The notes under the pieces are model-generated. The model saw nothing but the letters and a program-made list of their open reading frames with translations. It ran no database searches and was not told where the DNA came from. This document shows positions 163 to 35,342 of a stretch of DNA of 36,494 nt, piece after piece. The stretch is from the UHGV virus genome UHGV-0309737, one strand, 5' to 3'. This stretch comes from a virus. Every line of letters begins with the position of its first letter. The first letter of the stretch is position 1. The position numbers and the translations under genes are program-made.

Positions 163-1209
163 TCATTTTTTCTGACCGCCAACAACCGGCACAATTTTAG
201 TTTTCCTGTCATAAATCGCCGTTTGTCTCGAATTCTTATGACCAGAAATTGCCTGCTTCTCCTCGAGGCTTCCTTCCAGATCAGAGACACCTTTAGCCTT
301 CAGATCGTGAAATGTGAAGTCTATCTGCAGGTGTGGGTACTTCTCCTGTGCTGCAATTTTGGCTTCGCGCCAGCGTGAATTAAAACCGTCGCGAGTGTAT
401 TTACTGCCGCTGGTCTGGTGAATGACGAACAGGCTACGGATACCCGGCTTTAACGGCAGGGAACGGGCGAGGGCGACGGCAGCGCGGAGGCGTGGCGACC
501 ATGCCTTGATTTGCTTCACGCCTGTTTTCCCCTGGCGGATAAATATCCCGGTTTCCCGTATCTGGTCTTCAGTTAAAGCCAGCACATCGCTTTGTCTGGC
601 CAGACACAAATAAGCTATTTCCATGGTGGCGCGCACTACGTCCGGAGCAACATCGTAAACCGCTTTGTATTCTTCGTCGGTGATGTAACGCTCTCGGGCT
701 GTCTCTTTGAACTTCTTAACGCCCTGGCAGGGATTGTGCTGGACGTAACCCCGCTCGTAACCCCAGCGGAATACCCGCGAGAGAAAACTCTTTTCCCGGT
801 TGGCCTGCGTTTTACTGGCAATACCACGTTGATCCATATATCGCCGGATGTGTTCTGGTTTAATTTTATCAGGGTTAACTTTCCCGAATACTGGCAATAC
901 TTTTCCTGCGTATTTCGTATAGTCTTTTCTGGTTTCTGCCGCTAAATCCTGCCAGTCTGGAGACGCCATAAACTGCTCTGTGAGCGCCTGGAACGTTTTT
1001 CTTTCTGTCACTTCACCGACAGCTTTTTCATATGCCAGCCATACAGCGGATTGTGGTTCATTTAACCCACTCAGGCGGATCCCTTTGTTGTCTTTCGTAC
1101 GGAATTCAAATGCAGCCTTGCCCCGGTATACTCGCGGGGGCATCCAACTATCGGCAGGATTCTTTCGCTTTCCGGCCATCGAATATAGCTCCAAAATCAG
1201 GTTCGTCAT
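163..1209 (-). CDS. int: Tyrosine recombinase / phage integrase
   Basis: 348-aa ORF adjacent to tRNA att site; C-terminal catalytic region (...HDLKAKG...GH..SRQTAIYD...Y...) typical of lambda/P4-type integrases. Confidence 0.9.
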   Translation of the reverse strand: MTNLILELYSMAGKRKNPADSWMPPRVYRGKAAFEFRTKDNKGIRLSGLNEPQSAVWLAYEKAVGEVTERKTFQALTEQFMASPDWQDLAAETRKDYTKYAGKVLPVFGKVNPDKIKPEHIRRYMDQRGIASKTQANREKSFLSRVFRWGYERGYVQHNPCQGVKKFKETARERYITDEEYKAVYDVAPDVVRATMEIAYLCLARQSDVLALTEDQIRETGIFIRQGKTGVKQIKAWSPRLRAAVALARSLPLKPGIRSLFVIHQTSGSKYTRDGFNSRWREAKIAAQEKYPHLQIDFTFHDLKAKGVSDLEGSLEEKQAISGHKNSRQTAIYDRKTKIVPVVGGQKK

Positions 1210-5202: not shown

Positions 5203-5321
5203 AGCGACTCCTTGGTGATGTATACTCAGAGCCGATCGGCGACTCTGTCGTTGGTCTTTCCTCGCTACAGGGTTGGTCCCCTGTAGCACTCCTGGCGGAT
5301 TGGTCTCCGCTGGGGTAAATC

Positions 5322-5344
5322 AGCCCACTCCGGTGGGCTTTTTT
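5322..5344 (+). terminator. Intrinsic terminator, plus-strand orientation
   Basis: AGCCCAC-tccg-GTGGGCT followed by TTTTTT. Confidence 0.6.
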
Positions 5345-5357
5345 ACGCCTGAAGGTT

Positions 5358-5548
5358 GCCGGTCTTTCCCGGCTGTCAGGATGGTCAGTCCCATTGGTCT
5401 TTCCTCGTTACCGTGTGAAAAAAATGCCCCGGGCGCCGGGGCCAAGACTACACACAGCAATTCACATTCGTTGCGGTCTTTCCCGCATGTCATCGTACTG
5501 TCGGCGACCCGAAGAATTCTTGCCCGTCTTTCCGGACTGTCAGAACTG
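5358..5548 (-). repeat. Three ~28-bp direct repeats (GGTCTTTCC(C/G)G-N2-TGTCAG...) in PL leader region; each forms a small hairpin with GGAAAGA loop on the leftward transcript
   Basis: 5358-5388 gccGGTCTTTCCCGGcTGTCAGgatGGTCAG; 5473-5504 gcGGTCTTTCCCGCaTGTCAtcgtacTGTCGG; 5523-5548 cccGTCTTTCCGGacTGTCAGaactg. Confidence 0.7.
5418..5442 (-). terminator. Intrinsic terminator, minus-strand orientation, inside the PL leader
   Basis: 7-bp GC stem GCCCCGG-GCG-CCGGGGC; A-run 5418-5425 on plus strand gives a T-run after the stem on minus strand. Confidence 0.7.
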
Positions 5549-5586
5549 TTTCTGAACAACTGCCGCGTGGTTAGTGCGTCGTTGAT

Positions 5587-5645
5587 GTGGTGAATATTAA
5601 TAATGATAATATTATTGGTCAACATTAAAATATTAATAACGACAA
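5587..5645 (-). promoter_or_regulatory. Putative PL promoter with OL operators
   Basis: minus strand TTGACC(5617-5622 rc)-17 bp-TAATAT(5594-5599 rc); operator motif AATATTAATAA(T/C)G at 5593-5605 and 5629-5641, same motif as at OR. Confidence 0.55.
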
Positions 5646-5675
5646 TATTTTTTGTATGACGTTGATAAATTTAGA

Positions 5676-5704
5676 CAAAAAAAATCCCAGCGCGAAGCTG
5701 GGAT
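5676..5704 (-). terminator. Intrinsic terminator downstream of repressor gene
   Basis: minus strand: ATCCCAGC-ttcgc-GCTGGGAT followed by TTTTTTTT. Confidence 0.75.
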
Positions 5705-5726: not shown

Positions 5727-6182
5727 TTATTGCTTTCGTGTGGCTAGTAACTCTCTAAATAAACGATCAAAACCTTCCACTTTCTCTTTTAAATCAGATA
5801 AATGCCGTTCTTTTTCGCTCTGTGGTAGTCTTTCATACAAATCAATGAGTTCTGCATGTTCTGGGCTAAGTAGCTTCCAGCCTGGCCCTGATCGATCTTC
5901 TAGATACTCACCTGACTTTCTAACGTAATTCATCATTTCAGCCAGATCAGGCCGAATCTCTTCTGGTTTCACTCCAAGAAGTGAGGCGAATTTTAAAGTG
6001 GCATCGGTATTTAGTGGCGTAGTGCCATTTAAGTAATGGCTTACTGACGCCTGCGTGCTGAAGCCAAGCACCTCCGCTGCCTTCTCCTGAGTCAGACGTA
6101 AAGTTACTTTTTTTTCGTTCCAGATTTCACGAAGGCGTTTAGCTGCTTCGCGTTCAACGGCGTCAATGGTTTTCTTTCTCAT
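5727..6182 (-). CDS. Prophage repressor, XRE-family HTH (CI-analogue) lacking S24/LexA-like peptidase domain
   Basis: 151 aa; N-terminal HTH (LTQEKAAEVLGFSTQASVSHYLNG); divergent from cro-like gene; C-terminal 90 aa have no Ser/Lys peptidase motifs. Confidence 0.8.
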   Translation of the reverse strand: MRKKTIDAVEREAAKRLREIWNEKKVTLRLTQEKAAEVLGFSTQASVSHYLNGTTPLNTDATLKFASLLGVKPEEIRPDLAEMMNYVRKSGEYLEDRSGPGWKLLSPEHAELIDLYERLPQSEKERHLSDLKEKVEGFDRLFRELLATRKQ

Positions 6183-7273: not shown

Positions 7274-8266
7274 ATGAATATTTTGCCATTACTCGACAGG
7301 CCGATCGCCTTCCAGCGTAGTTTCATTCGTCTGAATATTGGTGTGACGGCTGCACTGTTCCTGTCTCAAATGACTTACTGGACTAACCGATCCGACGATG
7401 ACGGATGGGTATATAAAACCCAGGAAGAATGGGAGGAAGAAACAGGGCTTTCCCGTTACGAGCAGGAGGGGGCGCGTAAGAAACTTCGCTCAATTGGTGT
7501 ACTGCTGGAAAAAAAGAAAGGTGTACCTGCTCGTCTTTTCTACAAGATTGATAATGATGTTTTATTTCAAGCGCTTGTAGCCGCAAACAAGGATGCGGAA
7601 AAACCACATACTGGAATGCGGAAAACCAGCAAGCAAGTAAGTGGAAAACCAGCAAACTTTCTTACAGAGAATACTACAGAGAATATATATACCCCTAACC
7701 CCTTAGAGGGGGAAGGCGTTGAGATAATTCTTTCTGATGCACAAAAAGCGCTGGAATTTTACAACGAGCAAACCGGTACCCGCTGCCGTGACCTGAAACC
7801 GTTTGTGATGATGCTGACGCCGACCACCACCCGGGCAGGGTACACCCTGGATGAATTGCAGTTAGTTATCCGCTGGGTTCTGGCCACATGGCGCCGCCGT
7901 GGCGATAGCCTGCCGAAGCCAGCGAACATCTGCCGGGTAAACCGTTTTGATGGTTATCTCGCTGACGCTGCAGCATGGGAGATGACCGAAACCGACATTG
8001 ATCCGGAAGCCGTTATGAACGGCTACAACGAAATTTTTGCTGACGTTCTGCCTGCTGCTGAACTGGATACCGACCGCCGCCGGATGATCGCCCAGCTTGC
8101 CGCACACATGAAAAACAAAACCACGGGCGCATTTTTGGGGTATTTCGAAAAATTCCGCGCTGATGCGTCAGATTTTTATTTCGGTGCTAACGGCGGATGG
8201 CGCGCCAGCTTTGACTACCTGATGAAACCTGAAACGTTACGTAAAACCCGGGAAGGTTCGCTATGA
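7274..8266 (+). CDS. Phage replication initiation / replisome organiser protein (O-like)
   Basis: 330 aa directly upstream of and overlapping helicase gene; replisome-organiser-like N-terminus. Confidence 0.55.
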   Translation: MNILPLLDRPIAFQRSFIRLNIGVTAALFLSQMTYWTNRSDDDGWVYKTQEEWEEETGLSRYEQEGARKKLRSIGVLLEKKKGVPARLFYKIDNDVLFQALVAANKDAEKPHTGMRKTSKQVSGKPANFLTENTTENIYTPNPLEGEGVEIILSDAQKALEFYNEQTGTRCRDLKPFVMMLTPTTTRAGYTLDELQLVIRWVLATWRRRGDSLPKPANICRVNRFDGYLADAAAWEMTETDIDPEAVMNGYNEIFADVLPAAELDTDRRRMIAQLAAHMKNKTTGAFLGYFEKFRADASDFYFGANGGWRASFDYLMKPETLRKTREGSL

Positions 8267-11963: not shown

Positions 11964-12199
11964 GCATTAGAACAGAGCATGGGTACGGGCCATTAACGGT
12001 AACTGTCGGCTGGCTTGATAACTGCCCAAAATGCAACAACGACAAAGCCAGTGTGACTGGATGGTCTGTGTCTCCGGATACCCTTTGGGCTGGCGACGAA
12101 GCCGTATGCACGAAATGCGGACACAAAGGCGAAATTGATGCAGACGGTGAAAACGCTTGGGTTGAATGGGATGGCGTGAAGGAGGCCAGCCATGACTGA
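11960..12199 (+). CDS. Small zinc-ribbon protein
   Basis: CPKC...CTKCGH pairs. Confidence 0.45.
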   Translation: MSIRTEHGYGPLTVTVGWLDNCPKCNNDKASVTGWSVSPDTLWAGDEAVCTKCGHKGEIDADGENAWVEWDGVKEASHD

Positions 12200-12635
12200 T
12201 ATCACCGAACTGCCGCTACTCGTCAGCAAAGCAAGAGCATCCGCATTTACCCTGGAATATATCTCCCAGTTTGAGCTTGATGATATTGATTCCGATGACG
12301 TTGATTTGCGGTTTGAAGTAGATGGTCGAGATACCGGCACCAACGTTTCTATCGTCGATGAGTGTGGGCAGGCTGCAAAGGTTATTGGCGCGTTGGTAGA
12401 GGCGCTGGAGAAGGCGCAGCGGCACATCGGCGAACTTGAGCGCAAAGAGGAAGCTCTTCGCCCGGTCGGCGTAATGAGTGAGAAAGCGTATCACCGCCTG
12501 GAAAACAGAGAATCACGCTTTATTGCACTCTGGCCTCGCCCCGAGATCTATTTACCGCGTAAGCGCCCGGAAGATGGCGTGATCGTTTATGCACGTACTG
12601 CTGCTACGACTGGCATCAAGTGGGAGGCTGAGTGA
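12192..12635 (+). CDS. Hypothetical protein
   Basis: 147 aa ORF in coupled gene chain. Confidence 0.45.
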   Translation: MTDITELPLLVSKARASAFTLEYISQFELDDIDSDDVDLRFEVDGRDTGTNVSIVDECGQAAKVIGALVEALEKAQRHIGELERKEEALRPVGVMSEKAYHRLENRESRFIALWPRPEIYLPRKRPEDGVIVYARTAATTGIKWEAE

Positions 12636-12805
12636 TGCGCGACTGGAGACTGGTTTTACGCGATATGGAGCGAGAAGAGAAACGTAAGCGCTCTATGGTC
12701 AAAAACATTCCTGGTGAATTACGTAATCAAAAATGCCCGTGTGGTAGCGGCCGAAAAGCTAAAAATTGCCAGTGCGATATGTTCAAGGGGGCGAAAAATG
12801 TCTGA
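12635..12805 (+). CDS. Small protein with SEC-C-type metal-binding motif (56 aa), not in ORF track
   Basis: ...KCPCGSGRKAKNCQC... matches SecA C-terminal/YchJ SEC-C motif CPCGSGKKYKNC; TGATG overlap upstream, ATGTCTGA overlap downstream. Confidence 0.45.
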   Translation: MRDWRLVLRDMEREEKRKRSMVKNIPGELRNQKCPCGSGRKAKNCQCDMFKGAKNV

Positions 12806-13400
12806 TGAAATTGAAACTATAGATAAAAATCCCAAATCATGGGCTGCATGGAAACGGGAAGCAGAAAGGCTGCAAGAAATTATCGACGGCATGGCGCTGG
12901 CCGCAATGGACGGCGAGCCGGTGCTGTACGTAATGGGGATGGGTCAGGCGCTTGACGCCGAGACTGCGTCAACCTGCAAAGGGGCCGTGGACTCTTGGGT
13001 AGCTGAGTGGAACCAAAGTCGCCTACCGGGACAGGCGAAGTATAAAACCGTACCACTCTATCGCCACGCGCAGCCTGCGCCAGAGCTTGCCGCTATTGTT
13101 GAGCGCCTTAACCTCAGCGGATATGAGTATGAAGGCGGAGAGGTTACACCGCAAAATGCAGCAGCCATAGTCGATACTCTCCTGCAACAGCTCGATGACG
13201 AAGTACAGGGACGAAACGCGCAGCCAGCGCCGGTAGTGCCGGATGGTTACGTGATGGTGCCAATTGAGCCGACAATGTCGCAGGAGCTGGCGGGATATAA
13301 GACGCTGAACGACACGGGGAGGATGTCGCGCCTGATGAAGACTAGATTGTCAAATATTTACCGCGCGATGCTCGCAGCCGCCCCGCAGGAGGTGAAGTGA
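12798..13400 (+). CDS. Hypothetical protein
   Basis: start at MSDEIETIDKN (ATG 12798) rather than track's 12714. Confidence 0.5.
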   Translation: MSDEIETIDKNPKSWAAWKREAERLQEIIDGMALAAMDGEPVLYVMGMGQALDAETASTCKGAVDSWVAEWNQSRLPGQAKYKTVPLYRHAQPAPELAAIVERLNLSGYEYEGGEVTPQNAAAIVDTLLQQLDDEVQGRNAQPAPVVPDGYVMVPIEPTMSQELAGYKTLNDTGRMSRLMKTRLSNIYRAMLAAAPQEVK

Positions 13401-20893: not shown

Positions 20894-22888
20894 ATGCGCG
20901 CCAATCTGATTAAAACCAACTTCACCGCCGGAGAAATTTCCCCGCGTCTAATGGGGCGTGTTGATATCGATCGCTATGCAAACGGCGCGAAGACGCTGGA
21001 AAATAGCGTGGTCGTGGTGCAGGGCGGGGTAATGCGTCGCCCCGGCTCGCAGTTCGTAGCGGCCACAAAGTACGGCGATAAAAAATCCCGCCTCATTCCG
21101 TACGTTTTCAATCGCACGCAGGCGTACATTCTGGAGTTTGGCGACGGCTATCTGCGAATTTACCAGGATGGTAAGCAACTGGTGAACGACGATAACACGC
21201 CGTACGAAATCGCCAGCCCGTACACCTCTGACATGCTGCCATCGGTAAATTACGTACAGGGCGCTGATACCATGTTTCTGGTGCATCAGTCCGTTAAACC
21301 GTACCGCCTGCAGCGACGCGGGCAAACCGATTGGGTACTGGAACCCGCGCCGTTTATCGTTGAACCCTTCGACGAAGTGCGAGACACGCCGCAGAAATGG
21401 TGCAAGCCATCGGTGAAAGAATTCGTCGGCTCGGAAATAACGCTGACCCTGAGCGATGACGAACCGCCAGAAGATAGCGAAGACCCGCCGCCGTTTACTG
21501 GTGATGGTTGGGTGCCTGAAGATGTGGGCTCGTACGTCAGGATTAACAGCGGTCTGGTGCTGATTAAGAGCGTAACCAGTGCGCAGGTGGCCATCGGTAC
21601 CATTCGCACCGATTTAAGCGCAACGCAGGCGGCATCGCCGGGCGCATGGACTCGCGAGGATTCCGTCTGGACGGATGAATTTGGATACCCGGGCGCGGTA
21701 ACACTTTACCAGCAGCGGCTGGTTCTGGCCGGTTCGCCGCGGTACCCGCAAACTATCTGGTGGAGTGAGTCGGGCGTATACCTCTCTTTCGAACTGGGAA
21801 CCGACGACGACGACGCGATCAGCTTTACGCTGTCTTCTGACCAGCTCAACCCGATTGTGCACCTCGCGCAGATGAATACGCTAATTGCGCTGACGTACGG
21901 CGGCGAGTTCACCATTACCGCCGGCAACGATGCGGCGATTACGCCTACCAATATTTCAGTAAAGAATCCCAGCCCGTACGGATGCAATGGGATCCGCCCG
22001 GTGCGTGTCGGTACCGAAATTATGTTCGTCCAGCGTTCTGGCCGTAAGCTCTACGCTGTCGCCTATGACCCCGACAGCTATGTAGCCTACTCGGCCAACG
22101 ATATGACCGTACTGGCGGAACACATCACAGAAGGCGGCGTGATCGATATGGCGTATCAGCAGCAACCTGATGCGTTTACCTGGCTGGTTCGCAATGATGG
22201 CGTAATGGTGACGATGGCTATCGATCGGGCGCAGAACGTTGTCGCGTGGTCACGGCAGATCACCAACGGTGCGTTTGAGTCCGTAGCGACTATTCCCTCA
22301 GCGACTGACGATGTGGTGTACGCCATTGTGCGCCGTACGGTCAACGGCCAGACCGTTCGCTATGTCGAAATGTTCAGTAACGCCCTGTACACCGATGCAG
22401 CCGTGACGGGCTCCAGCGATACTGGCGCAACGACATGGGGTGGCCTGTCGCACCTCGAAGGCGAGACCGTCGATATTGTTGCAGACGGTTCTGTGATGCC
22501 GCAGGCGGTCGTATCATCCGGCCAAATCACGCTATCGCGTAAAGCCTACAAAGTAGAAATCGGCCTGCACTTCGAAACGACCATTACCACTCTGACGCCT
22601 GAAGTCGCTACATCAGAAGGTACCACGCAGAATACCCGCAAGCGCACCAGTGAAGTCACTATGCGTTTCCTCCAAACCACTGGCGCCGAGTGCAATGGCC
22701 AGGTGATCCCGTTCCGCACGTTCGGGCCAAAAATCCTCAACCAGCCGGCGCCGTTGTTCACCGGCGATCACTACTGGGGAAAACTAGGCTGGGAGCGCGG
22801 AGAAGACACGCTGACTATTCAGCAGCGCCAGCCGCTGCCGTTCCACCTTCTCGCCATTGTCATCGTATTTACCAGCAACGGGGGCTAA
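20894..22888 (+). CDS. Tail tubular protein B (gp12-like)
   Basis: 664 aa from ATG 20894; N-terminal NFTAGEISPRL... parallels T7 gp12 NLKGGISQQP... Confidence 0.7.
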   Translation: MRANLIKTNFTAGEISPRLMGRVDIDRYANGAKTLENSVVVVQGGVMRRPGSQFVAATKYGDKKSRLIPYVFNRTQAYILEFGDGYLRIYQDGKQLVNDDNTPYEIASPYTSDMLPSVNYVQGADTMFLVHQSVKPYRLQRRGQTDWVLEPAPFIVEPFDEVRDTPQKWCKPSVKEFVGSEITLTLSDDEPPEDSEDPPPFTGDGWVPEDVGSYVRINSGLVLIKSVTSAQVAIGTIRTDLSATQAASPGAWTREDSVWTDEFGYPGAVTLYQQRLVLAGSPRYPQTIWWSESGVYLSFELGTDDDDAISFTLSSDQLNPIVHLAQMNTLIALTYGGEFTITAGNDAAITPTNISVKNPSPYGCNGIRPVRVGTEIMFVQRSGRKLYAVAYDPDSYVAYSANDMTVLAEHITEGGVIDMAYQQQPDAFTWLVRNDGVMVTMAIDRAQNVVAWSRQITNGAFESVATIPSATDDVVYAIVRRTVNGQTVRYVEMFSNALYTDAAVTGSSDTGATTWGGLSHLEGETVDIVADGSVMPQAVVSSGQITLSRKAYKVEIGLHFETTITTLTPEVATSEGTTQNTRKRTSEVTMRFLQTTGAECNGQVIPFRTFGPKILNQPAPLFTGDHYWGKLGWERGEDTLTIQQRQPLPFHLLAIVIVFTSNGG

Positions 22889-23340
22889 TGATGATTCGTA
22901 ACGCCACTGCCGGGGATATCCCGGCGCTTATCGAGCTGGGAACCCGGATGTATCTCGAGTCCCGTTACTCGCAAAACTCGCCGTTTGATGCGGATAAATG
23001 CGCAGAGCTGGCGCAGAGCCTGATTTATTCGCCGTCTGGTTGTGTACTGGTCGCTGAAAAAGACGGGCAGGTGATCGGCTGGCTTGGCGGCGGTGTTGCC
23101 GAGCAATTTTTTTCCCGCCAGTTGATGGCCTTCGAGTATGGCTTATTTGTCGCGCCAGAACATCGCGGCGGTAGTGCCGGCCCGAGACTGGCCCGCGCGT
23201 TTATCGACTGGTCAAAAGAGCACGGCGCCGCCGTTATCAATATGGGGATCACCACTGGCGTGCACGCAGAACGCACTGGCCAGTTGTATTCGCGTCTCGG
23301 CCTGCAGCAAACAGGCCTGCTTTATTCGATGGAGGTTTAA
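22888..23340 (+). CDS. GNAT-family N-acetyltransferase in the gp13 slot
   Basis: 150 aa; IGWLGGGV...VAPEHRGGSAGPRLARAFIDWSKEHGA fits the GNAT acetyl-CoA binding motif. Confidence 0.6.
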   Translation: MMIRNATAGDIPALIELGTRMYLESRYSQNSPFDADKCAELAQSLIYSPSGCVLVAEKDGQVIGWLGGGVAEQFFSRQLMAFEYGLFVAPEHRGGSAGPRLARAFIDWSKEHGAAVINMGITTGVHAERTGQLYSRLGLQQTGLLYSMEV

Positions 23341-27119: not shown

Positions 27120-29618
27120 ATGAAACCACAATGTATACAGGCAGTAGAGGCACACCTTAGCGCTGTCAGTGGCAAGCCGGTTAAGCTTACGGCCGCGGCT
27201 ATTTCGCGTATCGATGAAAGAATGCATGAAGGTGCAAAAGTGCTGGCCCGCCGGGATCGCGCCTCCTGGCAATCAATGTCTCCTGATGAGCGTACGATTG
27301 CCATTGGTCAATGGGTGAGGGAACAAGAACAAGGGCAAGCAGACAGCCAGGCAAGGAGTAAAGTTCGCCAGCTTTCCGCTATTGTCGATGCAGCTAAAAG
27401 GCTTGATGCGATGGCGGGTGCCAGGCCAGACAAAGCAGGGAAATGGAGTAAATCTCTGATCGATGTACTGGAGGGCGTAGATAACACCTTGCGTGGAGCG
27501 GAGCAGGTCGCGGTAAGAGGATTCGGCGATATGCTAAAAGCGGCCAGAGTCGGGCCGTGGACGATGGATTTTGGCAATAAGCGCAGCGATGCTTTCTTTG
27601 CTGATGTCGTGCGCGAAATCTACGGTACCGATACAGGAAATGCTACCGCTAAAAGCTTTGCGCAAAAGTGGTCGGCCACCATGGACGGTTATCGCGAGGC
27701 CCGAAACCGGGCTGGTGGAACGGTAGGTAAACTGGATAATTACGCTCCACAATCCCATGATGCTACGGTTATGCAGCGGGTTGGTAAGCCCGCATGGGTT
27801 TCTTTTATGATGAAGAATCTCGATCGGGAGCAATATCTTAGTGAAACCGGCACTCGTCTCACGGATCCAGAACTTGAGAGCGTAGTGGGAAAAATGTACG
27901 ACTCCATCGTAACTGATGGCGCAAATAAAATTCAGCTTGATTTACAAGGATTGGCTGAGGGGGCGCCCAGCAGTTTTGGAAGCGCCAACATCGCGAGAAT
28001 GCTTAATAGCAGCCATAGAGAGATTCATTTACGAGATGCTGATGCCGTCATCGCTTATAACAATCAGTTCAGTGATCGCGCTCTGGGTGCGTCATTCTTT
28101 AGCCATCTAAACGGCGCCGCCAGAGATGTAGCGCTCATTAATGAGATGGGGCCAAACCCTGCGCTTACTTTCGCGACGTTAAAAGATACAGCAGCGAAGC
28201 GGGATAGCCAGATGCCTGGGGCCGTTTTTGAAGGCGATGGTAGTGTCAAAGGAGGAAACCGGGGAGCATTCGGCCCCGAGGCTTACTTTCGTCAAATAAT
28301 GCGTAATAACGCAGATTTCACCGATTTTGATCGCATTAGTAGCGCGTTAACTGCGTACCAGGCTGCAACAAAATTAACCAGCACAGGGCTACGCTCAGTT
28401 TTCCAGGACACGCCGGGTATGCTTCTGAATATGGCTGATGTGGGTCAGTTGCACAACATTGGCACTGTACTGCGTACAGCCTTCCGTCCAAAAGAAGCGG
28501 CTCAGTTCGGGATTGGTGCTGAAGTGGCGGTACGCGCTGCGCGTGAAGGTGCCGAAAGAATAATGGCACAGGGGCGTTTTAACCTGGCTAACGCCCTTAG
28601 TCGATACGCTCAGGCCACTATGAAATACACGTTGCTTGACGCCTGGACGAACGCGGCCCGGCGAGCGGGGCAGACCTCGCATGCACTGGCATTAGGTGAA
28701 TGGTCACATCTGCCTTGGAGTAAGCTGGATAGTAGCCAGCGCGGGCTATTGAATAATGCCGGTATCACTGAAGGTGATTGGCAGCACATCATGAGCGTCC
28801 CCCGCAAGAAACTACGCGGGCAAGATATACACGATGTGTCTGATGTATCTGCGTTAGGGCTTTCCCCCGATGAGACTATGCGCCTGCAATCTCAAATGAT
28901 GGGGTTTATCAGAATGGGCGGCGATATCGTTACTTCAGAGCATAACCTTACGGCACAAACATTAATGAGTGCTGGTGGGCGGACTAATGCCTTGACCAAA
29001 CAGGTAATGCTTTTTAAAAATGCTGGTGCGATACAGACCGCGCACATGTTGGATCGTCTTAGTCGTAAATCTGGCACAACCAAAGTTGGTTATGTTGCGG
29101 CGACGGCTGCACTATCCGCAAGCTTTGGTTATATGGCTCTGGTAGCTCAGGCGGTAACCAGCGGGCAGAATCCACCGCCACCAGATGATATACGAACCAT
29201 TGGTAAGGCTATGGCCGTAGCTGGTGGCTTTGCGATGGTTCAGGATCTGATTACCAGTATGTACGATGCTGTTAGTGGGGATAACAGTGGCCACAGTTCA
29301 AGTGCTGTACCCATTTTTGGTGATCTTGCAACGTTGGGTAAAATTGCCTTTACTGCCCCAATTGACCCACAGAAAGCCGGGTATATGGCTATCAAGTTTG
29401 GTCGCCAGCAAATTGCTCCGTTGAATTACTGGTATACAAAGGCGGCGGTTGATCATATGTTTTTCAACGATGCGGCCGAAGCGCTCAATCCAGGCTATCA
29501 GCGAAGGCTTAGAAAGTATGCTGATCAGAAAGGTCAACAGTATTTCTGGGATCCATCTGGAGACCTAGCGGCACCAGAAATGGGATACTATAAAAAAGAA
29601 TTCGAATTTGGTAATTAG
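27120..29618 (+). CDS. Internal virion protein D (gp16-like), C-terminal ORF
   Basis: 832 aa; with upstream ORF sums to ~T7 gp16 length; different frame, 2-nt gap. Confidence 0.5.
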   Translation: MKPQCIQAVEAHLSAVSGKPVKLTAAAISRIDERMHEGAKVLARRDRASWQSMSPDERTIAIGQWVREQEQGQADSQARSKVRQLSAIVDAAKRLDAMAGARPDKAGKWSKSLIDVLEGVDNTLRGAEQVAVRGFGDMLKAARVGPWTMDFGNKRSDAFFADVVREIYGTDTGNATAKSFAQKWSATMDGYREARNRAGGTVGKLDNYAPQSHDATVMQRVGKPAWVSFMMKNLDREQYLSETGTRLTDPELESVVGKMYDSIVTDGANKIQLDLQGLAEGAPSSFGSANIARMLNSSHREIHLRDADAVIAYNNQFSDRALGASFFSHLNGAARDVALINEMGPNPALTFATLKDTAAKRDSQMPGAVFEGDGSVKGGNRGAFGPEAYFRQIMRNNADFTDFDRISSALTAYQAATKLTSTGLRSVFQDTPGMLLNMADVGQLHNIGTVLRTAFRPKEAAQFGIGAEVAVRAAREGAERIMAQGRFNLANALSRYAQATMKYTLLDAWTNAARRAGQTSHALALGEWSHLPWSKLDSSQRGLLNNAGITEGDWQHIMSVPRKKLRGQDIHDVSDVSALGLSPDETMRLQSQMMGFIRMGGDIVTSEHNLTAQTLMSAGGRTNALTKQVMLFKNAGAIQTAHMLDRLSRKSGTTKVGYVAATAALSASFGYMALVAQAVTSGQNPPPPDDIRTIGKAMAVAGGFAMVQDLITSMYDAVSGDNSGHSSSAVPIFGDLATLGKIAFTAPIDPQKAGYMAIKFGRQQIAPLNYWYTKAAVDHMFFNDAAEALNPGYQRRLRKYADQKGQQYFWDPSGDLAAPEMGYYKKEFEFGN

Positions 29619-29632
29619 ATAAAGGGGGCGGT

Positions 29633-29926
29633 ATGCTAAATCCTCATACATTGAGAATTATCATCTGGTTTGTGTTTAGTATTGTTGGATGTATTTTATT
29701 TTTTATCGCTTATGGCCGCAGTCTTAAAAGGGCTTGCTCGTTTCTCCATGATGCAAAAGTAAGTTGCGATAAAATTAAAGAAAATAATAATTCTGGTGAT
29801 TATGTAGACGCACACCAAAGGTATAAAGTCTGGAAAAATGAAGTTGCTAGTATAAAACGGCAGCGAACATACTGCCTCTTAGCCACCCCTGGAATCCTGG
29901 CCATAATCGCCATGATTTTCTGGTGA
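29633..29926 (+). CDS. Small two-TM membrane protein, AT-rich accessory gene
   Basis: 97 aa; TM at 8-27 and 78-97; SD AAGGGGG; GC much lower than flanks. Confidence 0.5.
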   Translation: MLNPHTLRIIIWFVFSIVGCILFFIAYGRSLKRACSFLHDAKVSCDKIKENNNSGDYVDAHQRYKVWKNEVASIKRQRTYCLLATPGILAIIAMIFW

Positions 29927-29929
29927 TAT

Positions 29930-29950
29930 GCATAGCCCACCGTGGTGGGC
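29930..29950. other. Hairpin between convergent accessory genes
   Basis: AGCCCACC-gt-GGTGGGCT; same stem as the 5322 terminator; no T-run. Confidence 0.5.
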
Positions 29951-30622
29951 TTAACGTTTACCTTTGTACGAATCCCAACAATTTTTGCACCATGACATCA
30001 ACCCATCACGGTTGTTTGCGTTTTTGTAATAGCTTGTGCGTTTACGGCGGATCTCACAAATTGGACACCATTTAGTGTGCTGTGTGTTTTTTGGACCATC
30101 CAGGCAGTGTGCGCACCAAGTTGTATATCCATCAGCGTGTTTACTAGATTTTCTATATTTATCTAAGGGCAGGTTTCTACTGCATCGCGTACAGACCTTA
30201 CGCCCATCAGCAACCTGAACGGTATTTTCAATTAACGTAGGTGAAATCGTGGAAGAGGGGAGCGGGTTAACGACTTTTTCAACTCTTTGAGGCTGAATAA
30301 AGGTCTGCTGCTCCGTGTGCAAAGACTCGACAGATTTCTGCTCAGAAACCTGTTTGTAATAATCGGATATAACAGCTTTGTCATATTCAGAATGACTTTC
30401 GTTATTTAAGGTATTAGGTTTCGTATACTGAGTCGAAGCGCTGTCAATCACTTGTGTTTGCTGAATACGGATTTCCCCATCTTCAGTTTTAACAGTTTTG
30501 TTTCTGGTTATAACGGTTCGATTTGTGATTTTTGTTCTGTTCTGATTGATAACGAACAAGATCACAACAACTACGCCAACAACTACCCAGAAAATTTCCA
30601 TAAAATCACTCTTAGCATTCAA
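29951..30622 (-). CDS. Membrane-anchored protein with C-terminal tandem CxxC-x20-CxxC zinc-ribbon repeats
   Basis: 223 aa; N-terminal TM IFWVVVGVVVVILFVI; repeats CTRCSRNLPLDKYRKSSKHADGYTTWCAHC and CPICEIRRKRTSYYKNANNRDGLMSWCKNC; AT-rich. Confidence 0.5.
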   Translation of the reverse strand: MNAKSDFMEIFWVVVGVVVVILFVINQNRTKITNRTVITRNKTVKTEDGEIRIQQTQVIDSASTQYTKPNTLNNESHSEYDKAVISDYYKQVSEQKSVESLHTEQQTFIQPQRVEKVVNPLPSSTISPTLIENTVQVADGRKVCTRCSRNLPLDKYRKSSKHADGYTTWCAHCLDGPKNTQHTKWCPICEIRRKRTSYYKNANNRDGLMSWCKNCWDSYKGKR

Positions 30623-30685
30623 TTCACTCAGTAAAGATATGATAGAGCAGCATTTTCCGAAATCCTGATATTTTTACAGCATTAA

Positions 30686-30700
30686 GTCAGGATTCCGACC
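30686..30700. promoter_or_regulatory. Conserved palindromic late element copy 2 (GTCAGGATTCCGACC)
   Basis: 62 nt upstream of small terminase ATG. Confidence 0.6.
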
Positions 30701-30718
30701 TCTAGCCCAATACATCAT

Positions 30719-30747
30719 AGCCCTATGGATAACCACGGGGCTTTTTT
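30719..30747 (+). terminator. Terminator-like hairpin + T-run immediately abutting small-terminase ATG
   Basis: AGCCC-tatggataacca-CGGGGCT TTTTT ATG. Confidence 0.45.
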
Positions 30748-31095
30748 ATGCATTCAGATTACAAAACTCGCCTTACTGCTCTTAGCGATAAGCTCACCGA
30801 TGTAGTTCTGGAAGAAGCCGATCCGGACAACTGGCCGGGGGCAGGGAAGGAAATCACAAAGCACACCAAACAGGAACGCGGCGATCGGTACTGGCATAAG
30901 AAGAATGCGGCCGCATCGCTAACCTTGTTGGTAAAAGTCCATTCACTTATTGGTATGCATACTCGCGGAGGCACGCCGAAGAGCGGCGGAGAAGATCCGG
31001 ACGATGAAGCGTTCCAGTTAGGTCAGCAGGTAGCAGCTGCTGAGCGTAAAGCGCTGGAAGTCATCGAGAGGATACAGCACAAAGGCAAAAAATGA
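30748..31095 (+). CDS. Terminase small subunit (gp18-like), putative
   Basis: 115 aa directly upstream of and ATGA-overlapping large terminase. Confidence 0.5.
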   Translation: MHSDYKTRLTALSDKLTDVVLEEADPDNWPGAGKEITKHTKQERGDRYWHKKNAAASLTLLVKVHSLIGMHTRGGTPKSGGEDPDDEAFQLGQQVAAAERKALEVIERIQHKGKK

Positions 31096-32702
31096 TTTCG
31101 TTCCTGGCCTTCTTTTTGATGTGGGCGGAACGGATGAACTGGGATGTGCCGGACTGCCACTATAAAGCCTGCCACTGGCTGGAGCATCGCGGAAACCTCG
31201 CGGTGCTTCGCTGTTTTCGTGGCTTTGGTAAATCAACTATCCTGGGCGTTTATAACGCCTGGCGGTATTACTGCGATCGCCAGTACCGTATTCTGCATCA
31301 GTCGGAATCCGATACAACCGCCAGAAAGACCAGCCGCGATACGCAAAACGTTCTGCGTAATCACCCACTGACGAAAGGTATGTTGCCGGACGGCATCGGT
31401 ACCATCGAGCAATGGTGGGTAAACGGCGCGCTGGATATGCGTAACGCCAGCATGTTCGCAAAAGGCATTCTGTCGAACGTTACCGGCGCCCGTGCCAACG
31501 AGTGCCAGAATGATGACGTGGAGGTGCCCGGCAATATCCAGACTCCGGAGGCTCGCGAAAAACTGCGCTATCGCCTAAGCGAGCAGACGCATATTTTGAT
31601 ACCCGGAGGCCGGAAATTGTTTATCGGTACGCCGCATACCCACGATAGTCTTTACGACGAGAAAGAAGCAGAGGGCGCTGATTGCCTGACGATAAAGCTA
31701 TTCGATAAAGAGCACCGCGTCGAAGCGAAGAAGGCAACCAAAAAACGATACCGGATACCGTTCCGCCCAGAATATGTTTTTGTGGGGATCCACAAGGCCG
31801 CCCGGTTATTGATTGAGGGTACTGATTATCGATTGACGGAAGACGGTGTAGAGTTCGCAGCGCCGCCTGAAACTGTCGTGGATTTTTATGCCGGCTGCGC
31901 GTGGCCAGGCCGTTTCGATCATGATGAATTACTGCTGCGCCGTAAAGAATGCCGCACCGTCAACGAATGGGATAGCCAGTACCAGTTGCACAGTAAACCG
32001 GTTGGCGAGGTTCGTCTCGATCCCGACCGTATCCGCGAGTACAACGTCCAGCCTGAAATTCGCTATGCGAACCGTTCCTGCTCGATGTGGCTGGGACAGA
32101 CGCAAATCGTCGGCGCTGTCGCCTGGTGGGATGTGGCCACCGGCAAAGTTAAGGCTGATGCTTCGGCATTTTCCCTTATTTTCACCGACGCCCGCGGGCA
32201 TCTTTACTGGCATGTTTGCCAGGGGTTAACTGGCGAGCTGGCAGAATTTGGCTACAACGACAAAATCACCGGCGGTCAGGTGATGCAGATTAAAGAACTG
32301 GTGCTGAAGTACCAGATCCCGCTGGTCTGCGTAGAGGTAAACGGCCCCGGCAGTTTCGCCGGGAAGTTGCTTATTCAGGCGCTGAAGGGTACCGGCTGCG
32401 GCGTGCGGGAAGAGTTCAGCGTCACCAACAAACAAAAGCGCATCCTCGATGCTTTCGAAGCGCCGCTGTCGTCCCGGTTCCTGTGGGCGCATACCGACGT
32501 GCTCGACGGCCCAATGTACGACCAGATGCGGGATTTCAACCCGGCGTTAACTAACCAGCCAGACGACTTTATCGATTCGGGATCCGGTGCGATCAGTGCT
32601 ACGCCTGTGCGCATCGGGAAATTAGTCGGGATTCCGACCGCGCAGGCGAGGGAGCATTGGCAGCCATACGATGGCGACATTTCGGTCGCTGTAGATTACT
32701 AG
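31092..32702 (+). CDS. Terminase large subunit (T7 gp19-like)
   Basis: 536 aa; Walker A CFRGFGKST; size/position. Confidence 0.8.
   Translation: MISFLAFFLMWAERMNWDVPDCHYKACHWLEHRGNLAVLRCFRGFGKSTILGVYNAWRYYCDRQYRILHQSESDTTARKTSRDTQNVLRNHPLTKGMLPDGIGTIEQWWVNGALDMRNASMFAKGILSNVTGARANECQNDDVEVPGNIQTPEAREKLRYRLSEQTHILIPGGRKLFIGTPHTHDSLYDEKEAEGADCLTIKLFDKEHRVEAKKATKKRYRIPFRPEYVFVGIHKAARLLIEGTDYRLTEDGVEFAAPPETVVDFYAGCAWPGRFDHDELLLRRKECRTVNEWDSQYQLHSKPVGEVRLDPDRIREYNVQPEIRYANRSCSMWLGQTQIVGAVAWWDVATGKVKADASAFSLIFTDARGHLYWHVCQGLTGELAEFGYNDKITGGQVMQIKELVLKYQIPLVCVEVNGPGSFAGKLLIQALKGTGCGVREEFSVTNKQKRILDAFEAPLSSRFLWAHTDVLDGPMYDQMRDFNPALTNQPDDFIDSGSGAISATPVRIGKLVGIPTAQAREHWQPYDGDISVAVDY
32625..32642. promoter_or_regulatory. 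Conserved palindromic late element copy 3 (GTCGGGATTCCGACCGCG) inside terminase 3' end
   Basis: 78 nt upstream of tailspike ATG. Confidence 0.6.
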
Positions 32703-32719
32703 CCGCCGGAGCGCCACCT

Positions 32720-34888
32720 ATGTCGGTACCTAACCAAATTCCTTATAACATCTATACCGCCAATGGACAGACGACCGTTTTTACTTACCAGTTCTATATC
32801 ATCAGTGCCAGTGATTTAGAGGTAAGCATCAACGGTTCCGTTGTTACCAGCGGCTATACCGTATCCGGCGTTGGTAACAAAGACGGCGGTGATATTACAT
32901 TCCTTACTCCGCCGGCAAACGGCGCAGTGGTTATGCTCGAACGTGTGGTACCGACATTTCGTCTCACCGATTATCAGGACAATGGCGATTTGCTTGCGGA
33001 TACCGTCAATAAGGATTTTGACCGTATCTGGATGGCGATTCAACGCGCGTTTATCGATCTGGGGCTTTCACTTACTCGCCCACTTTTTGGCGGGCCGTAT
33101 AACGCACAGGGCTACCGCATCGCTAATCTTGCTGATCCAGTCGATAAACAGGATGCCGCAACAAAGAGCTACGTTGATGCAACTGGTGCAGCCAACCTTC
33201 GCTATGCGCTGCGTTTCCCTGAAGTTGTCGAACCCATGCCGCGAGTAGCTGTTCGGGCTAATTCCCTTCAGGGGTATAACGCCCAGGGTAAACCAGTACC
33301 CGTTTTCTCGATGACCGATACCGCCGACCTTGCATTACAACTTGCATCCTTAACCGGTGCGAGTTTGATTGGAGGTCTGGGATTTATCACACCTGAAATG
33401 CATGGGGCGCTGGGGGATGGAAATACCGATGACCGCGTAGCAATTCAAGCTGCGATCGATAAGGCCAGCGAAAACTACATTAACGGGACTGGGCCAACAA
33501 CGGTATGGATGGGTTACAAATACCTGGTATCTCTGAACCCAAACTCACCACTGTTACCCGGTGAAGTCGCTGCGGGTCGCGCGGTGTTCAATGTGCCAGA
33601 CGGGGTGACAATCACCGGTGGCGGGCACATAGCGCTAGTTGACACCTACTCGGGTACGTCTTCCGGCGCAGTATTTACTAACTGGAGTGGCACCGCGAAT
33701 AACTGCATCATCAGAGGTATTTCAATCGATTGCCGCTATGGTATAGCCCCCGGTCGTGGGATATCAGGTATCAACATTGTCGATTCTGATAATGTTCTGA
33801 TTGATGGCGTGATAGTCATTAACGCATCGGGCGGGGGTATTTACCTGCGCCGTTGCTACGGTAACGCAGCCGATAGTAACTACGGATGCTCAAACAGCAA
33901 AATCATTAACTGTCATGTTAATAACGTTTATTACATCGGGATCCAGTGCGAGCGCCCGCGAGGCGTTCTCATTAATGGCAATACTATTACAAACACCAAA
34001 AATAACGGTATTGATATCGAGGGTGAAAACTCCAGCACAACCAATTCTGGTTATGCAACCAACGTTGTAATCACATCCAATATTCTGGTGGATGTTAATA
34101 ACGGTATTTTTATCGAATCCTGTGGCAATACTGTTGTTAACAGCAACAACATTACTACGGCGGGGATCGGGATTGTCTTTAACCGTATCAGTTCTGCGTC
34201 GTTCTTCAATACTGTTATAGGCAACGAAATCACCGGGACGTCATTAACATCGGGCTGGGGGATGCGCTTTATCAACCAGATCGGGCGGTGCACGATTGCC
34301 AATAATACAATCAGGGTTAAAAAGTACGGTATGCATTTTGCCGATCGTATCGACCGTTGCAATATCGGGTCAAACACCTTTGAGTCTATCGGTGAAACGA
34401 TACTCCATTTCGATAAAGTACCATCAGGTGTATCTATGCTTCGTTCCCGAATTGCGGAGCAATTTTACCTTGGCGGGCAGACTAGAGGTGTCCCGTATTC
34501 AACATCTCCGCGTGGATGCCCTTCAAACTACCCGAATCGAATGGCATCAACCGTTCGTTATACCCCCGTTCTATTTTCAGACCTTGCGGGGCCGGGGGAA
34601 GACAATATGGTGTACCGTACCGCCGTGCTTACGTTGAATAGCTCTTGGAATGCTTACGCCAGGTACGGAAACACCACCGCCGGTTATACCGACATAAATG
34701 GTAATTTTGGTAATGCGGGGGATTACCTTGAAATTAATGGAGTTGTGTATCAAATTTATGCGGTGGCAACCAGCGTCACGACAATTACTAAGTGGGATGG
34801 AACGGCGTATGTCGCTGGTAATTTTGTTGGTGATTTCACGGATGCTTTCACAGTTAAAACACACAGACCTGTATGGGGAACTTTATAA
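32720..34888 (+). CDS. Tailspike/tail fiber: T7 gp17-like N-terminal adaptor + pectate-lyase-like beta-helix (putative capsule depolymerase)
   Basis: 722 aa from ATG 32720; ...AQGYRIANLADPVDKQDAATKSYVDA vs T7 gp17 GRRIVNLANAVDDRDAVPFGQLKT; repeated NxxIxxN/G PbH1 repeats. Confidence 0.85.
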   Translation: MSVPNQIPYNIYTANGQTTVFTYQFYIISASDLEVSINGSVVTSGYTVSGVGNKDGGDITFLTPPANGAVVMLERVVPTFRLTDYQDNGDLLADTVNKDFDRIWMAIQRAFIDLGLSLTRPLFGGPYNAQGYRIANLADPVDKQDAATKSYVDATGAANLRYALRFPEVVEPMPRVAVRANSLQGYNAQGKPVPVFSMTDTADLALQLASLTGASLIGGLGFITPEMHGALGDGNTDDRVAIQAAIDKASENYINGTGPTTVWMGYKYLVSLNPNSPLLPGEVAAGRAVFNVPDGVTITGGGHIALVDTYSGTSSGAVFTNWSGTANNCIIRGISIDCRYGIAPGRGISGINIVDSDNVLIDGVIVINASGGGIYLRRCYGNAADSNYGCSNSKIINCHVNNVYYIGIQCERPRGVLINGNTITNTKNNGIDIEGENSSTTNSGYATNVVITSNILVDVNNGIFIESCGNTVVNSNNITTAGIGIVFNRISSASFFNTVIGNEITGTSLTSGWGMRFINQIGRCTIANNTIRVKKYGMHFADRIDRCNIGSNTFESIGETILHFDKVPSGVSMLRSRIAEQFYLGGQTRGVPYSTSPRGCPSNYPNRMASTVRYTPVLFSDLAGPGEDNMVYRTAVLTLNSSWNAYARYGNTTAGYTDINGNFGNAGDYLEINGVVYQIYAVATSVTTITKWDGTAYVAGNFVGDFTDAFTVKTHRPVWGTL

Positions 34889-35034
34889 TGGAAATTGGCG
34901 ACGTAACGCAGCTTACTGATGAAGAGATTAATGATTACCTGAATAACTACGTCTGGTATGGCATTTCCGCAGACGACAGGCTTCGTCTGGGTGAAGAAAT
35001 GAGACGACGCGAAGCACTTAAGGAGCAGAACTAA
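34888..35034 (+). CDS. Small ORF (48 aa) after tailspike
   Basis: ATG overlaps tailspike stop (TAATG). Confidence 0.3.
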   Translation: MEIGDVTQLTDEEINDYLNNYVWYGISADDRLRLGEEMRRREALKEQN

Positions 35035-35039
35035 AAGAA

Positions 35040-35060
35040 GGTCAGGATTCCGACCTGACC
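35040..35060. promoter_or_regulatory. Conserved palindromic late element copy 4 (GGTCAGGATTCCGACCTGACC)
   Basis: 71 nt upstream of holin ATG; extended 7-bp stem. Confidence 0.6.
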
Positions 35061-35064
35061 AACG

Positions 35065-35110
35065 CCTTACCCTCACATCACTACACATAGTGATCCCCGT
35101 GGGGGTAAGG
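35065..35110 (+). promoter_or_regulatory. Nested RNA hairpin sequestering holin SD
   Basis: CCTTACCC(35065-72) pairs GGGTAAGG(35103-10, the SD); inner ATCACT-acacat-AGTGAT. Confidence 0.55.
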
Positions 35111-35111
35111 C

Positions 35112-35342
35112 ATGCGAATGAAGAATTTACCGGATGTGGCGGCGGGAACGTCGTATATAACATCCACCGTAAGCGGTAGCTACTGGCTGCTGCAACTTCT
35201 CGATAAGGTAAGCCCCAGCCAGTGGGCGGCAATCGGTGTTCTGGCCAGTATTGTTTTCGGGTTACTTACCTACCTCACCAATCTGTACTTCAAAATCAAA
35301 GACGACCGGCGGAAGGCACAGGACTATGAGCAACAAAGCTAA
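35112..35342 (+). CDS. Pinholin, phage 21 S21-like, dual-start (M1/M3)
   Basis: ...[47 protein letters not shown] near-identical pattern to S21; MRMK dual-start. Confidence 0.85.

Follow-up and report, generated by a model that had tools for sequence, protein, structure and literature searches.

A putative inner-membrane zinc-ribbon protein in an accessory slot of a Klebsiella prophage, with superinfection exclusion as a candidate function

We use profile searches, structure prediction and the comparison of gene neighbourhoods to study two small genes of a phage late region, which we call ORF-A and ORF-B, and in particular the membrane protein that ORF-B is predicted to encode. Both lie in the UHGV virus genome UHGV-0309737 (the window, a stretch of 36,494 nucleotides (nt)), which is a temperate Klebsiella prophage with a T7-type virion module. 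Together they make up the stretch between the gene for a large internal protein (a gp16-like ejection protein, 27120-29618; phrog_684, E 3e-121) and the gene for a small-terminase-like protein of 115 amino acids (aa) (30748-31095). ORF-A (29633-29926, plus strand) encodes 97 aa, and ORF-B (29951-30601, minus strand) encodes 216 aa. The GC content of 29619-30747 is 0.402 against 0.521 for the whole window, which bears out the drop inside a GC-rich structural operon that had been pointed out in an earlier reading of the letters alone (the sequence-only reading). Apart from minor corrections given below, the features described in that reading are present. Averaged over 300 nt, GC content is 0.357-0.417 at 29400-29999 and 0.37-0.38 at 30300-30749, with values of 0.50-0.58 on both sides, and at third codon positions it is 0.35 in ORF-A and 0.40 in ORF-B against 0.47-0.65 in the flanking genes.

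As a mechanical open reading frame (ORF), ORF-B spans 29951-30622 and gives 223 aa from a TTG codon, the length reported in the sequence-only reading. In all homologues and in the NCBI annotations the protein starts with MEIFW (216 aa), and the corresponding ATG at 30601 is preceded by AAGAG; the start is therefore probably ATG 30601 and not TTG 30622. The N-terminal transmembrane (TM) segment proposed earlier stands: it covers residues 2-20 (30542-30598; this and the following segments are all on the minus strand) and is a helix over the same residues in an AlphaFold2 (AF2) model. After it comes a conserved, polar, juxtamembrane beta-hairpin (NRTKITNRTVITRNKTVKTEDGEIRIQQTQVIDS...; residues 21-59, 30425-30541), in which T29, T39, G42 and T57 are invariant and whose AF2 strands, 22-39 and 42-59, have predicted local distance difference test (pLDDT) scores of 51-68, a moderate confidence. 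The linker that follows (residues 60-133, 30203-30424) varies in sequence and in length (41-97 aa across the family) and shows no conservation; it has a predicted helix at 71-95 and is then disordered, with pLDDT below 50 at 59-74 and 90-129. The C-terminal part consists of two zinc ribbons, C137-x2-C140-x22-C163-x2-C166 (30104-30193) and C179-x2-C182-x22-C205-x2-C208 (29978-30067), both modelled with pLDDT 81-94. Two CxxC repeats had indeed been noticed before, with x20 given for the spacing that we count as x22; the spacing is x22 in nearly all of the 13 family members checked, and most family members have exactly eight cysteines. The ratio of nonsynonymous to synonymous divergence (dN/dS), calculated from three relatives, is 0.08 for ORF-B, a sign of strong purifying selection.

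The charges around the TM helix give an indication of how the protein sits in the membrane. In 22 of 22 family members there is no Lys or Arg before the helix, and there are two to six in the 18 residues after it, so that, by the positive-inside rule, we infer an N-out/C-in topology with a cytoplasmic C-terminus and all eight cysteines in the cytoplasm. Residues 134-216 carry a net charge of +14 (pI 9.8), and the ribbon domain is comparably basic in all 13 members (net charge +10 to +18, pI 9.4-10.3). Each Cys4 ribbon would be expected to bind zinc.

Over its full length ORF-B matches phrog_6762 (PHROGs v4; E 9.2e-72, 242.8 bits), a family with no assigned function or literature; what is new here is the architecture, the topology and the synteny. 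An exhaustive profile search returns about 45 full-length clusters (at 50% identity) that share the TM helix, hairpin, linker and two ribbons, along with about 1,800 further proteins that have the ribbon repeat alone, and in this search the TM and beta-hairpin module is not seen joined to any other C-terminal domain. Scans of Pfam, NCBIfam and PADLOC give no family above threshold for ORF-A or ORF-B. With the Pfam Stc1 model (PF12898), ORF-B scores 19.3 bits (E 0.0017), under the gathering threshold of 24.8 bits, and multi-repeat relatives found with the ORF-B profile, some of them fused to HNH, HEAT or SF1-helicase domains, score 34-61 bits, above it; the relation of ORF-B to Stc1 is therefore transitive only. 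A sequence search of the PDB finds the N-terminal zinc module of PacI alone, and weakly (E 0.033), while Foldseek against the PDB finds nothing significant for ORF-B. Fold matches in BFVD (E 1e-4 to 1e-3) are to viral proteins named HNH endonuclease, bba-Me, Zn-finger or Stc1 domain, and in its fold the ribbon matches the Cys4 module found in Hpy99I, in PacI and in HNH proteins of viruses.

Compared with Stc1 and with the Cys4 modules of bba-Me proteins (PacI, 3ldy/3m7k; Hpy99I, 3fc3; and T4 endonuclease VII-like proteins), ORF-B has the same CxxC-x(about 20)-CxxC arrangement and the same (F/Y)xKSxK...DG.T.WC pattern, but it lacks the catalytic residues and nuclease domain, and its N-terminal TM helix with a beta-hairpin tether is unusual. 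The ribbons appear to be an Stc1-like, HNH-associated Cys4 module that is strongly basic and has no catalytic residues. The claim that the zinc ribbon is uncharacterised accordingly survives in part: no named family covers ORF-B, but the repeat itself can be recognised. Structure prediction, which the sequence-only reading had recommended for this domain, gives confident ribbons whose fold matches the Cys4 module of HNH, bba-Me and Stc1 proteins. That reading had also named homology to a structural tail or assembly protein as something that would refute it, and the Pfam, PHROG and NCBIfam scans reveal none for either ORF. Two other assignments were considered and rejected. A match to Lar-like restriction alleviation proteins (phrog_5558, E 2e-8) is taken as a generic zinc-ribbon match because Pfam gives no Lar match. 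An Rz-like i-spanin comes from the lysis cassette, has N-in/C-out topology and forms a coiled coil in the periplasm; the match of ORF-B to phrog_7584 is weak (E 1.4e-4, over TM and linker), the predicted topology is the opposite one, and the lysis genes are elsewhere.

ORF-A starts 14 nt past the stop codon of the gp16-like gene and has a good to strong Shine-Dalgarno sequence, AAAGGGGG, 5 nt upstream. It encodes a small inner-membrane protein with hydrophobic segments at residues 9-27 (TM1) and 81-97 (TM2), in agreement with the two helices described before, and the 53-residue loop between them (28-80) is basic (12 K/R against 6 D/E, pI 9.7); the predicted topology is N-out, loop-in, C-out. 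With dN/dS of 0.23-0.30 it is under purifying selection. Its homologues fall into only six clusters, every one within the window's phage family, and it has no match in Pfam, PHROG, NCBIfam or PADLOC. We looked at two identities for it and kept neither. Holins are small TM proteins whose genes accompany those for endolysin and spanin, and in class II the two TM segments lie close together; ORF-A matches no holin family, its TM segments stand a 53-residue basic loop apart, and both the window and its relatives have a Phage_holin_2_1 gene and a lysozyme gene elsewhere. A fragment or homologue of P22 SieA is rejected on BLASTP (E 0.86) and on the presence of two TM segments only. The reading that fits ORF-A best is that it closes the late ejection-protein operon, separate from ORF-B. 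As a side observation, Providencia-type prophages (L007 8665-8961, minus strand; also L079, L097 and L099; L-numbers are labels of the compared loci, and coordinates given with one count within that locus) have a 98-aa two-TM protein, not homologous to ORF-A, whose gene directly follows the last ejection-protein gene and is convergent with the ORF-B homologue, which is the relative position of ORF-A.

The locus comparison identifies this stretch as a slot with exchangeable contents. A moron, in the sense of Hendrix and Juhala, is an accessory gene unit inserted into a phage late operon, and the suggestion that we are dealing with one agrees with what the relatives show: between neighbours that are kept, the cargo differs in L002, L003 and L176, and the composition deviates (GC 0.40 against 0.52). 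In L176, which has the same backbone as the window, the slot is filled by a 72-aa DUF7661 gene (7403-7621, plus strand); in an E. coli prophage relative it holds a 130-aa signal-peptide protein, and in YeP4 the second gene at the slot is a different one. Aligned with L176 and L002, the window shows variable cargo up to about 30686, and the sequence from GTCAGGATTCCGACC through to the ATG of the small-terminase-like gene belongs to the backbone. An Rfam scan of 29400-31000 yields chance-level matches only. A recent horizontal insertion is rejected, since synonymous divergence (dS) of ORF-A and ORF-B from three relatives is 0.5-0.8, similar to that of the flanking genes; both genes are therefore old residents of the phage lineage.

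Now we consider where the homologues of ORF-B are found, using 172 compared loci with a full-length relative, many of them redundant. At 19 loci the homologue starts 19-67 nt downstream of a CI-like repressor gene on the same strand, and the place downstream of cI is the one that rexAB occupies in lambda. They fall into four lineages (Dickeya L009/L101, the Aeromonas phiARM81mr type, the L103 type and L112), in which the repressors, identified by a Pfam S24 and/or Cro/C1 helix-turn-helix (HTH) match or by the record's own annotation, are unrelated and both repressor and ORF-B homologue have diverged. A fifth lineage (L125) has the order CI, 102-aa gene, short ORF-B relative, and in a sixth the homologue is convergent with CI. 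In podovirus-type prophages (the epsilon15/TL-2011b, Serratia, Providencia and window types) the homologue lies instead between the last ejection-protein gene and the antirepressor (ant) and tailspike genes, and its orientation is opposite to that of the ejection-protein gene in prophages of the Serratia, Providencia and L018 types, in YeP4 and in the window. Identical copies of the ORF-A and ORF-B proteins turn up on many contigs of Klebsiella aerogenes and K. pneumoniae; the window allele of ORF-B is on 137 Klebsiella contigs, and the TL-2011b allele is in 129 of 5426 complete E. coli genomes (about 2%). The annotation is always 'hypothetical protein', both for the exact pair and for the TL-2011b allele. 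The homologue in TL-2011b itself (L001 5004-5732; record positions 34153-35241) is a misc_feature 'similar to hypothetical protein' in GenBank, yet its 242-aa ORF is intact; a frameshifted variant of this allele also exists in public data (P0042).

How should these positions and this architecture be interpreted? Our favoured reading, to which we assign a probability of roughly 0.45, is that the prophage expresses ORF-B as an inner-membrane protein and that the zinc ribbons of this protein, on the cytoplasmic side, block phage DNA on its arrival or sense it, in other words superinfection exclusion at genome entry. The gene thereby stays a defence-type candidate, as the sequence-only reading had suggested. 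Three links lead to it. The two independent slot associations, after cI and after the last ejection-protein gene (a sieA-like slot), suggest by analogy that the gene is expressed in the lysogen and benefits it. Dispensability, foreign composition and strong purifying selection also point to a gene that serves the lysogen. Finally, a basic, zinc-stabilised cytoplasmic domain on a long tether suggests action at the inner face of the membrane, where phage DNA and the ejection channel emerge. In mechanistic terms, ORF-B would be a stand-alone accessory gene whose product is held in the inner membrane by its single N-terminal helix, with nearly the whole protein in the cytoplasm: first the beta-hairpin close to the membrane, then some 70 residues of flexible linker, and last the two basic Cys4 ribbons. 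At the inner membrane face, the tethered ribbons might hold either the end of the DNA that enters first or whatever part of the ejection-protein channel is exposed to the cytoplasm; such binding would halt translocation and protect the lysogen at or just after entry of the superinfecting genome. The target of ORF-B and the step that it would block are speculative. Its mode of action would then resemble that of P22 SieA, with an unrelated protein.

In P22, superinfection exclusion involves sieA, a gene with its own promoter that is convergent with gene 16 and precedes ant and the tailspike gene (Leavitt et al. 2024, PMC10883804). ORF-B, too, is an accessory gene of a prophage that lies behind the last of the ejection-protein genes and is convergent with it, has a predicted inner-membrane product and is present in only some relatives. 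We propose SieA as its functional analogue; ORF-B would likewise block DNA entry at the inner membrane. The P22 slot runs from gene 16 to tailspike gene 9 and its occupant has its own orientation; the window has the series gp16-like gene (plus), ORF-A (plus), ORF-B (minus), and the Serratia, Providencia and YeP4 arrangements are analogous, with the difference that in the window the terminase genes also precede the tailspike gene. The proteins themselves are not alike. Between ORF-B and SieA, BLASTP gives E 2.5, and the FxRYPxEAxxFNK motif is missing (type A of types A-C was compared); SieA is polytopic, with three to four TM segments and no zinc ribbons, whereas ORF-B has one TM helix and a large cytoplasmic domain. 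Unlike P22 SieA, ORF-B also occurs in the cI operons of other phage types. We sought P22-type SieA in all compared loci and in the window and found it only in P22 itself; in the literature we found no zinc-ribbon exclusion protein and no relevant work on the Stc1 domain in phages. Membrane proteins for exclusion or immunity are a known kind of prophage gene, to which ORF-B would on this account add a new and non-homologous variant. A more ambitious version, which we put forward tentatively and regard as less probable, is that ORF-B represents a new single-protein class of prophage immunity, in which the ribbons recognise the entering genome end or the ejection channel and next cause either a jam in translocation or, by way of the TM helix and beta-hairpin, a failure of the membrane, working from the cI and sieA slots across phages of Enterobacterales and Aeromonas.

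Several observations weigh against exclusion at genome entry. In the TL-2011b type, the most numerous among the loci, the homologue is co-directional with the structural genes, so that an antisense moron is not the universal pattern. Homologues often adjoin antirepressor genes, and a regulatory role would fit this adjacency too. Stc1-type ribbons bind protein in the one known studied case, S. pombe Stc1, and DNA binding by ORF-B is therefore not a given. The phages with ORF-B in the cI slot may have no ejection proteins of T7 or P22 type, so the target need not be an ejectosome. No defence model of PADLOC-DB v2.0.0 matches, apart from a 13.6-bit match over a CxxC stretch to the candidate HEAT_CxxC_PD-DEXK. 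Lastly, a consensus scan finds no convincing sigma-70 promoter upstream of ORF-B in the window, where our own scoring reaches 7/12 at best.

The closest rival to exclusion is abortive infection, with sensor and effector in one chain: the ribbons would sense a phage DNA or protein cue, and clustering of the TM helix and beta-hairpin would depolarise the membrane and kill the cell, making ORF-B a fused functional analogue of lambda RexA/RexB. We consider this improbable. The cI-operon position of the four lineages, directly downstream of CI and on the same strand, is exactly that of rexAB, a membrane component is present in both systems, and a TM helix with a conserved juxtamembrane module, a flexible linker and a sensor-like domain is what such a chain would look like. 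However, ORF-B is one gene only and shares no homology with RexA or RexB, nor with a PADLOC model, and in the window it stands outside the immunity region. The beta-hairpin gives Foldseek alignments to the stems of beta-pore-forming toxins, but these are not significant (E >= 2) and we discard them as evidence, keeping them as a lead only; the hairpin is moreover polar and predicted to be cytoplasmic, which argues against a membrane-spanning stem. A constitutive pore-former would also need tight control, and ORF-B has no conserved partner gene.

Next in line, and similarly improbable, is a function for the phage itself, either as a membrane tether for the genome or replication complex or as a regulator acting with the neighbouring antirepressor (immI-like) genes. 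The phi29 protein p16.7 is a membrane-anchored DNA-binding protein of early lytic growth that organises the phage's own replication, and ORF-B resembles it in having an N-terminal TM helix, a spacer and a basic C-terminal cytoplasmic domain, here putatively nucleic-acid-binding. The frequent adjacency of ant, KilA-N and Bro genes, upstream palindromes in TL-2011b, Serratia and L018 that suggest repressor control, and the shared direction of the TL-2011b-type gene and the late genes all fit such a role. The domains of p16.7 and ORF-B are unrelated, however, and ORF-B sits in lysogeny-associated slots and is dispensable, with close relatives on the same backbone that do without it. ORF-B moves between unrelated phage types and slots, and its cI-operon position implies expression while the phage is not replicating.

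Less probable again is the proposal of the sequence-only reading that ORF-A and ORF-B work as a pair, in a two-gene membrane system of the defence or toxin-antitoxin-like kind. The two are found together only in one clade of closely related Klebsiella/Raoultella prophages, where ORF-B is always next to ORF-A and the genes are convergent and similarly AT-rich. Both products have basic cytoplasmic parts on membrane anchors, and the non-homologous two-TM gene of the Providencia-type prophages occupies ORF-A's relative position. But the clade has a common structural module, so that co-occurrence within it is not independent evidence, the genes differ in strand, and ORF-A is tied to the late operon. 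Each gene is also found without the other. ORF-B occurs without ORF-A in at least six contexts: Yersinia YeP4/YeP5/YeP6 (in the window's slot, with a different neighbour), Escherichia TL-2011b, Serratia, Providencia, Dickeya and Aeromonas phiARM81mr. L176 has an ORF-A homologue (52% identity) right after gp16 and lacks ORF-B. From this distribution the two genes do not appear to be a pair, and ORF-A does not appear to be the partner of ORF-B. Least probable by far is a membrane-bound HNH/bba-Me nuclease that degrades incoming DNA, for although the best structure and sequence matches are to Hpy99I, PacI and viral HNH endonucleases and PHROG matches reach 'endonuclease VII' families (E 6e-9), these matches are limited to the Cys4 zinc module, no Pfam HNH or Endonuclease_7 match exists, the second CxxC is followed by Leu or Trp/Met and not by Asn or His, the sole invariant His of the close family (H175) is not conserved in distant members, and no catalytic His/Asn set is conserved in close or distant alignments, so that ORF-B is most unlikely to be a nuclease.

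Temperate phages keep exclusion and defence genes in a few predictable slots, such as after cI and after the ejection-protein genes, and many occupants of these slots have no function assigned. The ORF-B family, unannotated everywhere, is carried by about 2% of complete E. coli genomes and by many Klebsiella genomes, and its architecture is simple and testable. If ORF-B does block entry from the cytoplasmic side, it would offer a second handle on podovirus DNA delivery across the inner membrane, mechanistically unlike SieA, and a marker to consider in choosing therapeutic phages against Klebsiella; failing any phage phenotype, it would simply join the morons to which no role is assigned.

The non-coding parts of the stretch hold several structured elements. 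Between the convergent stop codons is the hairpin noted in the sequence-only reading, AGCCCAC-CGTG-GTGGGCT (29934-29951), which has a 7-bp GC-rich stem and a tetraloop, takes up nearly all of the 24-nt spacer and overlaps the ORF-B stop by 1 nt. It folds with -18.6 kcal/mol (z -2.6) on the plus strand and -15.5 kcal/mol (z -2.2) on the minus strand, and in relatives an invariant stem carries a CAAG loop in place of CGTG; neither strand shows a clear U-tract. A second hairpin (30719-30747, plus strand), AGCCCU.AUGG-AUAA-CCAC.GGGGCU followed by U5, resembles an intrinsic terminator (-13.2 kcal/mol) and adjoins the ATG of the small-terminase-like gene. It is a backbone element, kept in relatives with any cargo, and its counterparts in L176 (7806-7843) and L002 (6030-6064) have a U-run of 5-6. 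Unless antiterminated, this hairpin would be expected to halt late-operon read-through before the terminase, tailspike and lysis genes, and a prophage insulator and a regulated late terminator are candidate roles for it. A scan for sigma-70 and terminator consensus calls neither hairpin as a terminator.

The promoter of ORF-B would be expected in the cargo-specific region upstream of it (30602-30686, minus strand), which has weak sigma-70 candidates only, and weighted promoter scoring of the upstream regions from ten ORF-B contexts reveals no common promoter. A moron would bring a promoter and a terminator of its own; at ORF-B the hairpin at the 3' end has no U-tract, and upstream a convincing sigma-70 consensus is absent. 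Across the junction between cargo and backbone lies the inverted repeat CCGAAATCCTGA-N18-TCAGGATTCCGA (30657-30698), with 12 pairs in the minus-strand RNA fold and a right arm that is backbone, common to L176 and L002; it could be an operator, a 5'-UTR (untranslated region) hairpin or a recombination scar. In other contexts a near-perfect palindrome, ATTACCTT-T-AAGGTAAT or the permuted TTAAGGT-T-ACCTTAA, is found 15-30 nt upstream of the ORF-B homologue: in L001 (TL-2011b) at about 5750-5775 (minus strand), in L004 (Serratia) at about 7950-7975 and in L018 (Superficieibacter) at about 5965-5985. The palindrome is missing from the window and may be an operator in these three contexts.

The remainder of the window is consistent with a prophage of this kind. 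An integrase gene (163-1209, minus strand) lies near its start, and an HTH repressor gene (5727-6182, minus strand) faces a Cro-like gene. In profile scans the portal and capsid are of T7 type, and a T7_gp14 match is present but weak. The T7-type large terminase gene (terL, 31092-32702) is followed by the tailspike gene (32657-34888), whose product has the N-terminal domain of the T7 tail fibre; this accords with the relocation of gp17 described in the sequence-only reading. The lysis genes are downstream of the tailspike gene.

A few further genes were met along the way. In L176 an Acyl_transf_3 gene (11969-13069, minus strand) downstream of the tailspike gene probably encodes an O-antigen acetylase and would hence be a lysogenic-conversion gene. 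Beside the tailspike gene of epsilon15-like, Serratia and Providencia prophages is a conserved ORF of 82-85 aa (L001 4725-4982, plus strand; L004 5311-5559; L007 7638-7889) similar to the C-terminal portion of the antirepressor encoded next to it. The virion module of the window includes a GNAT acetyltransferase gene (22690-23340, plus strand), which stands between the tail-tube-like gene and the gene for the gp14-like internal protein; L176 has one too (313-759). Finally, the window has a second AT-rich patch (5300-5700, minus strand; GC about 0.42) directly downstream of its repressor gene, which contains a single dubious 101-aa ORF (5320-5625) with no family match and corresponds to the slot that ORF-B homologues occupy in other phages.

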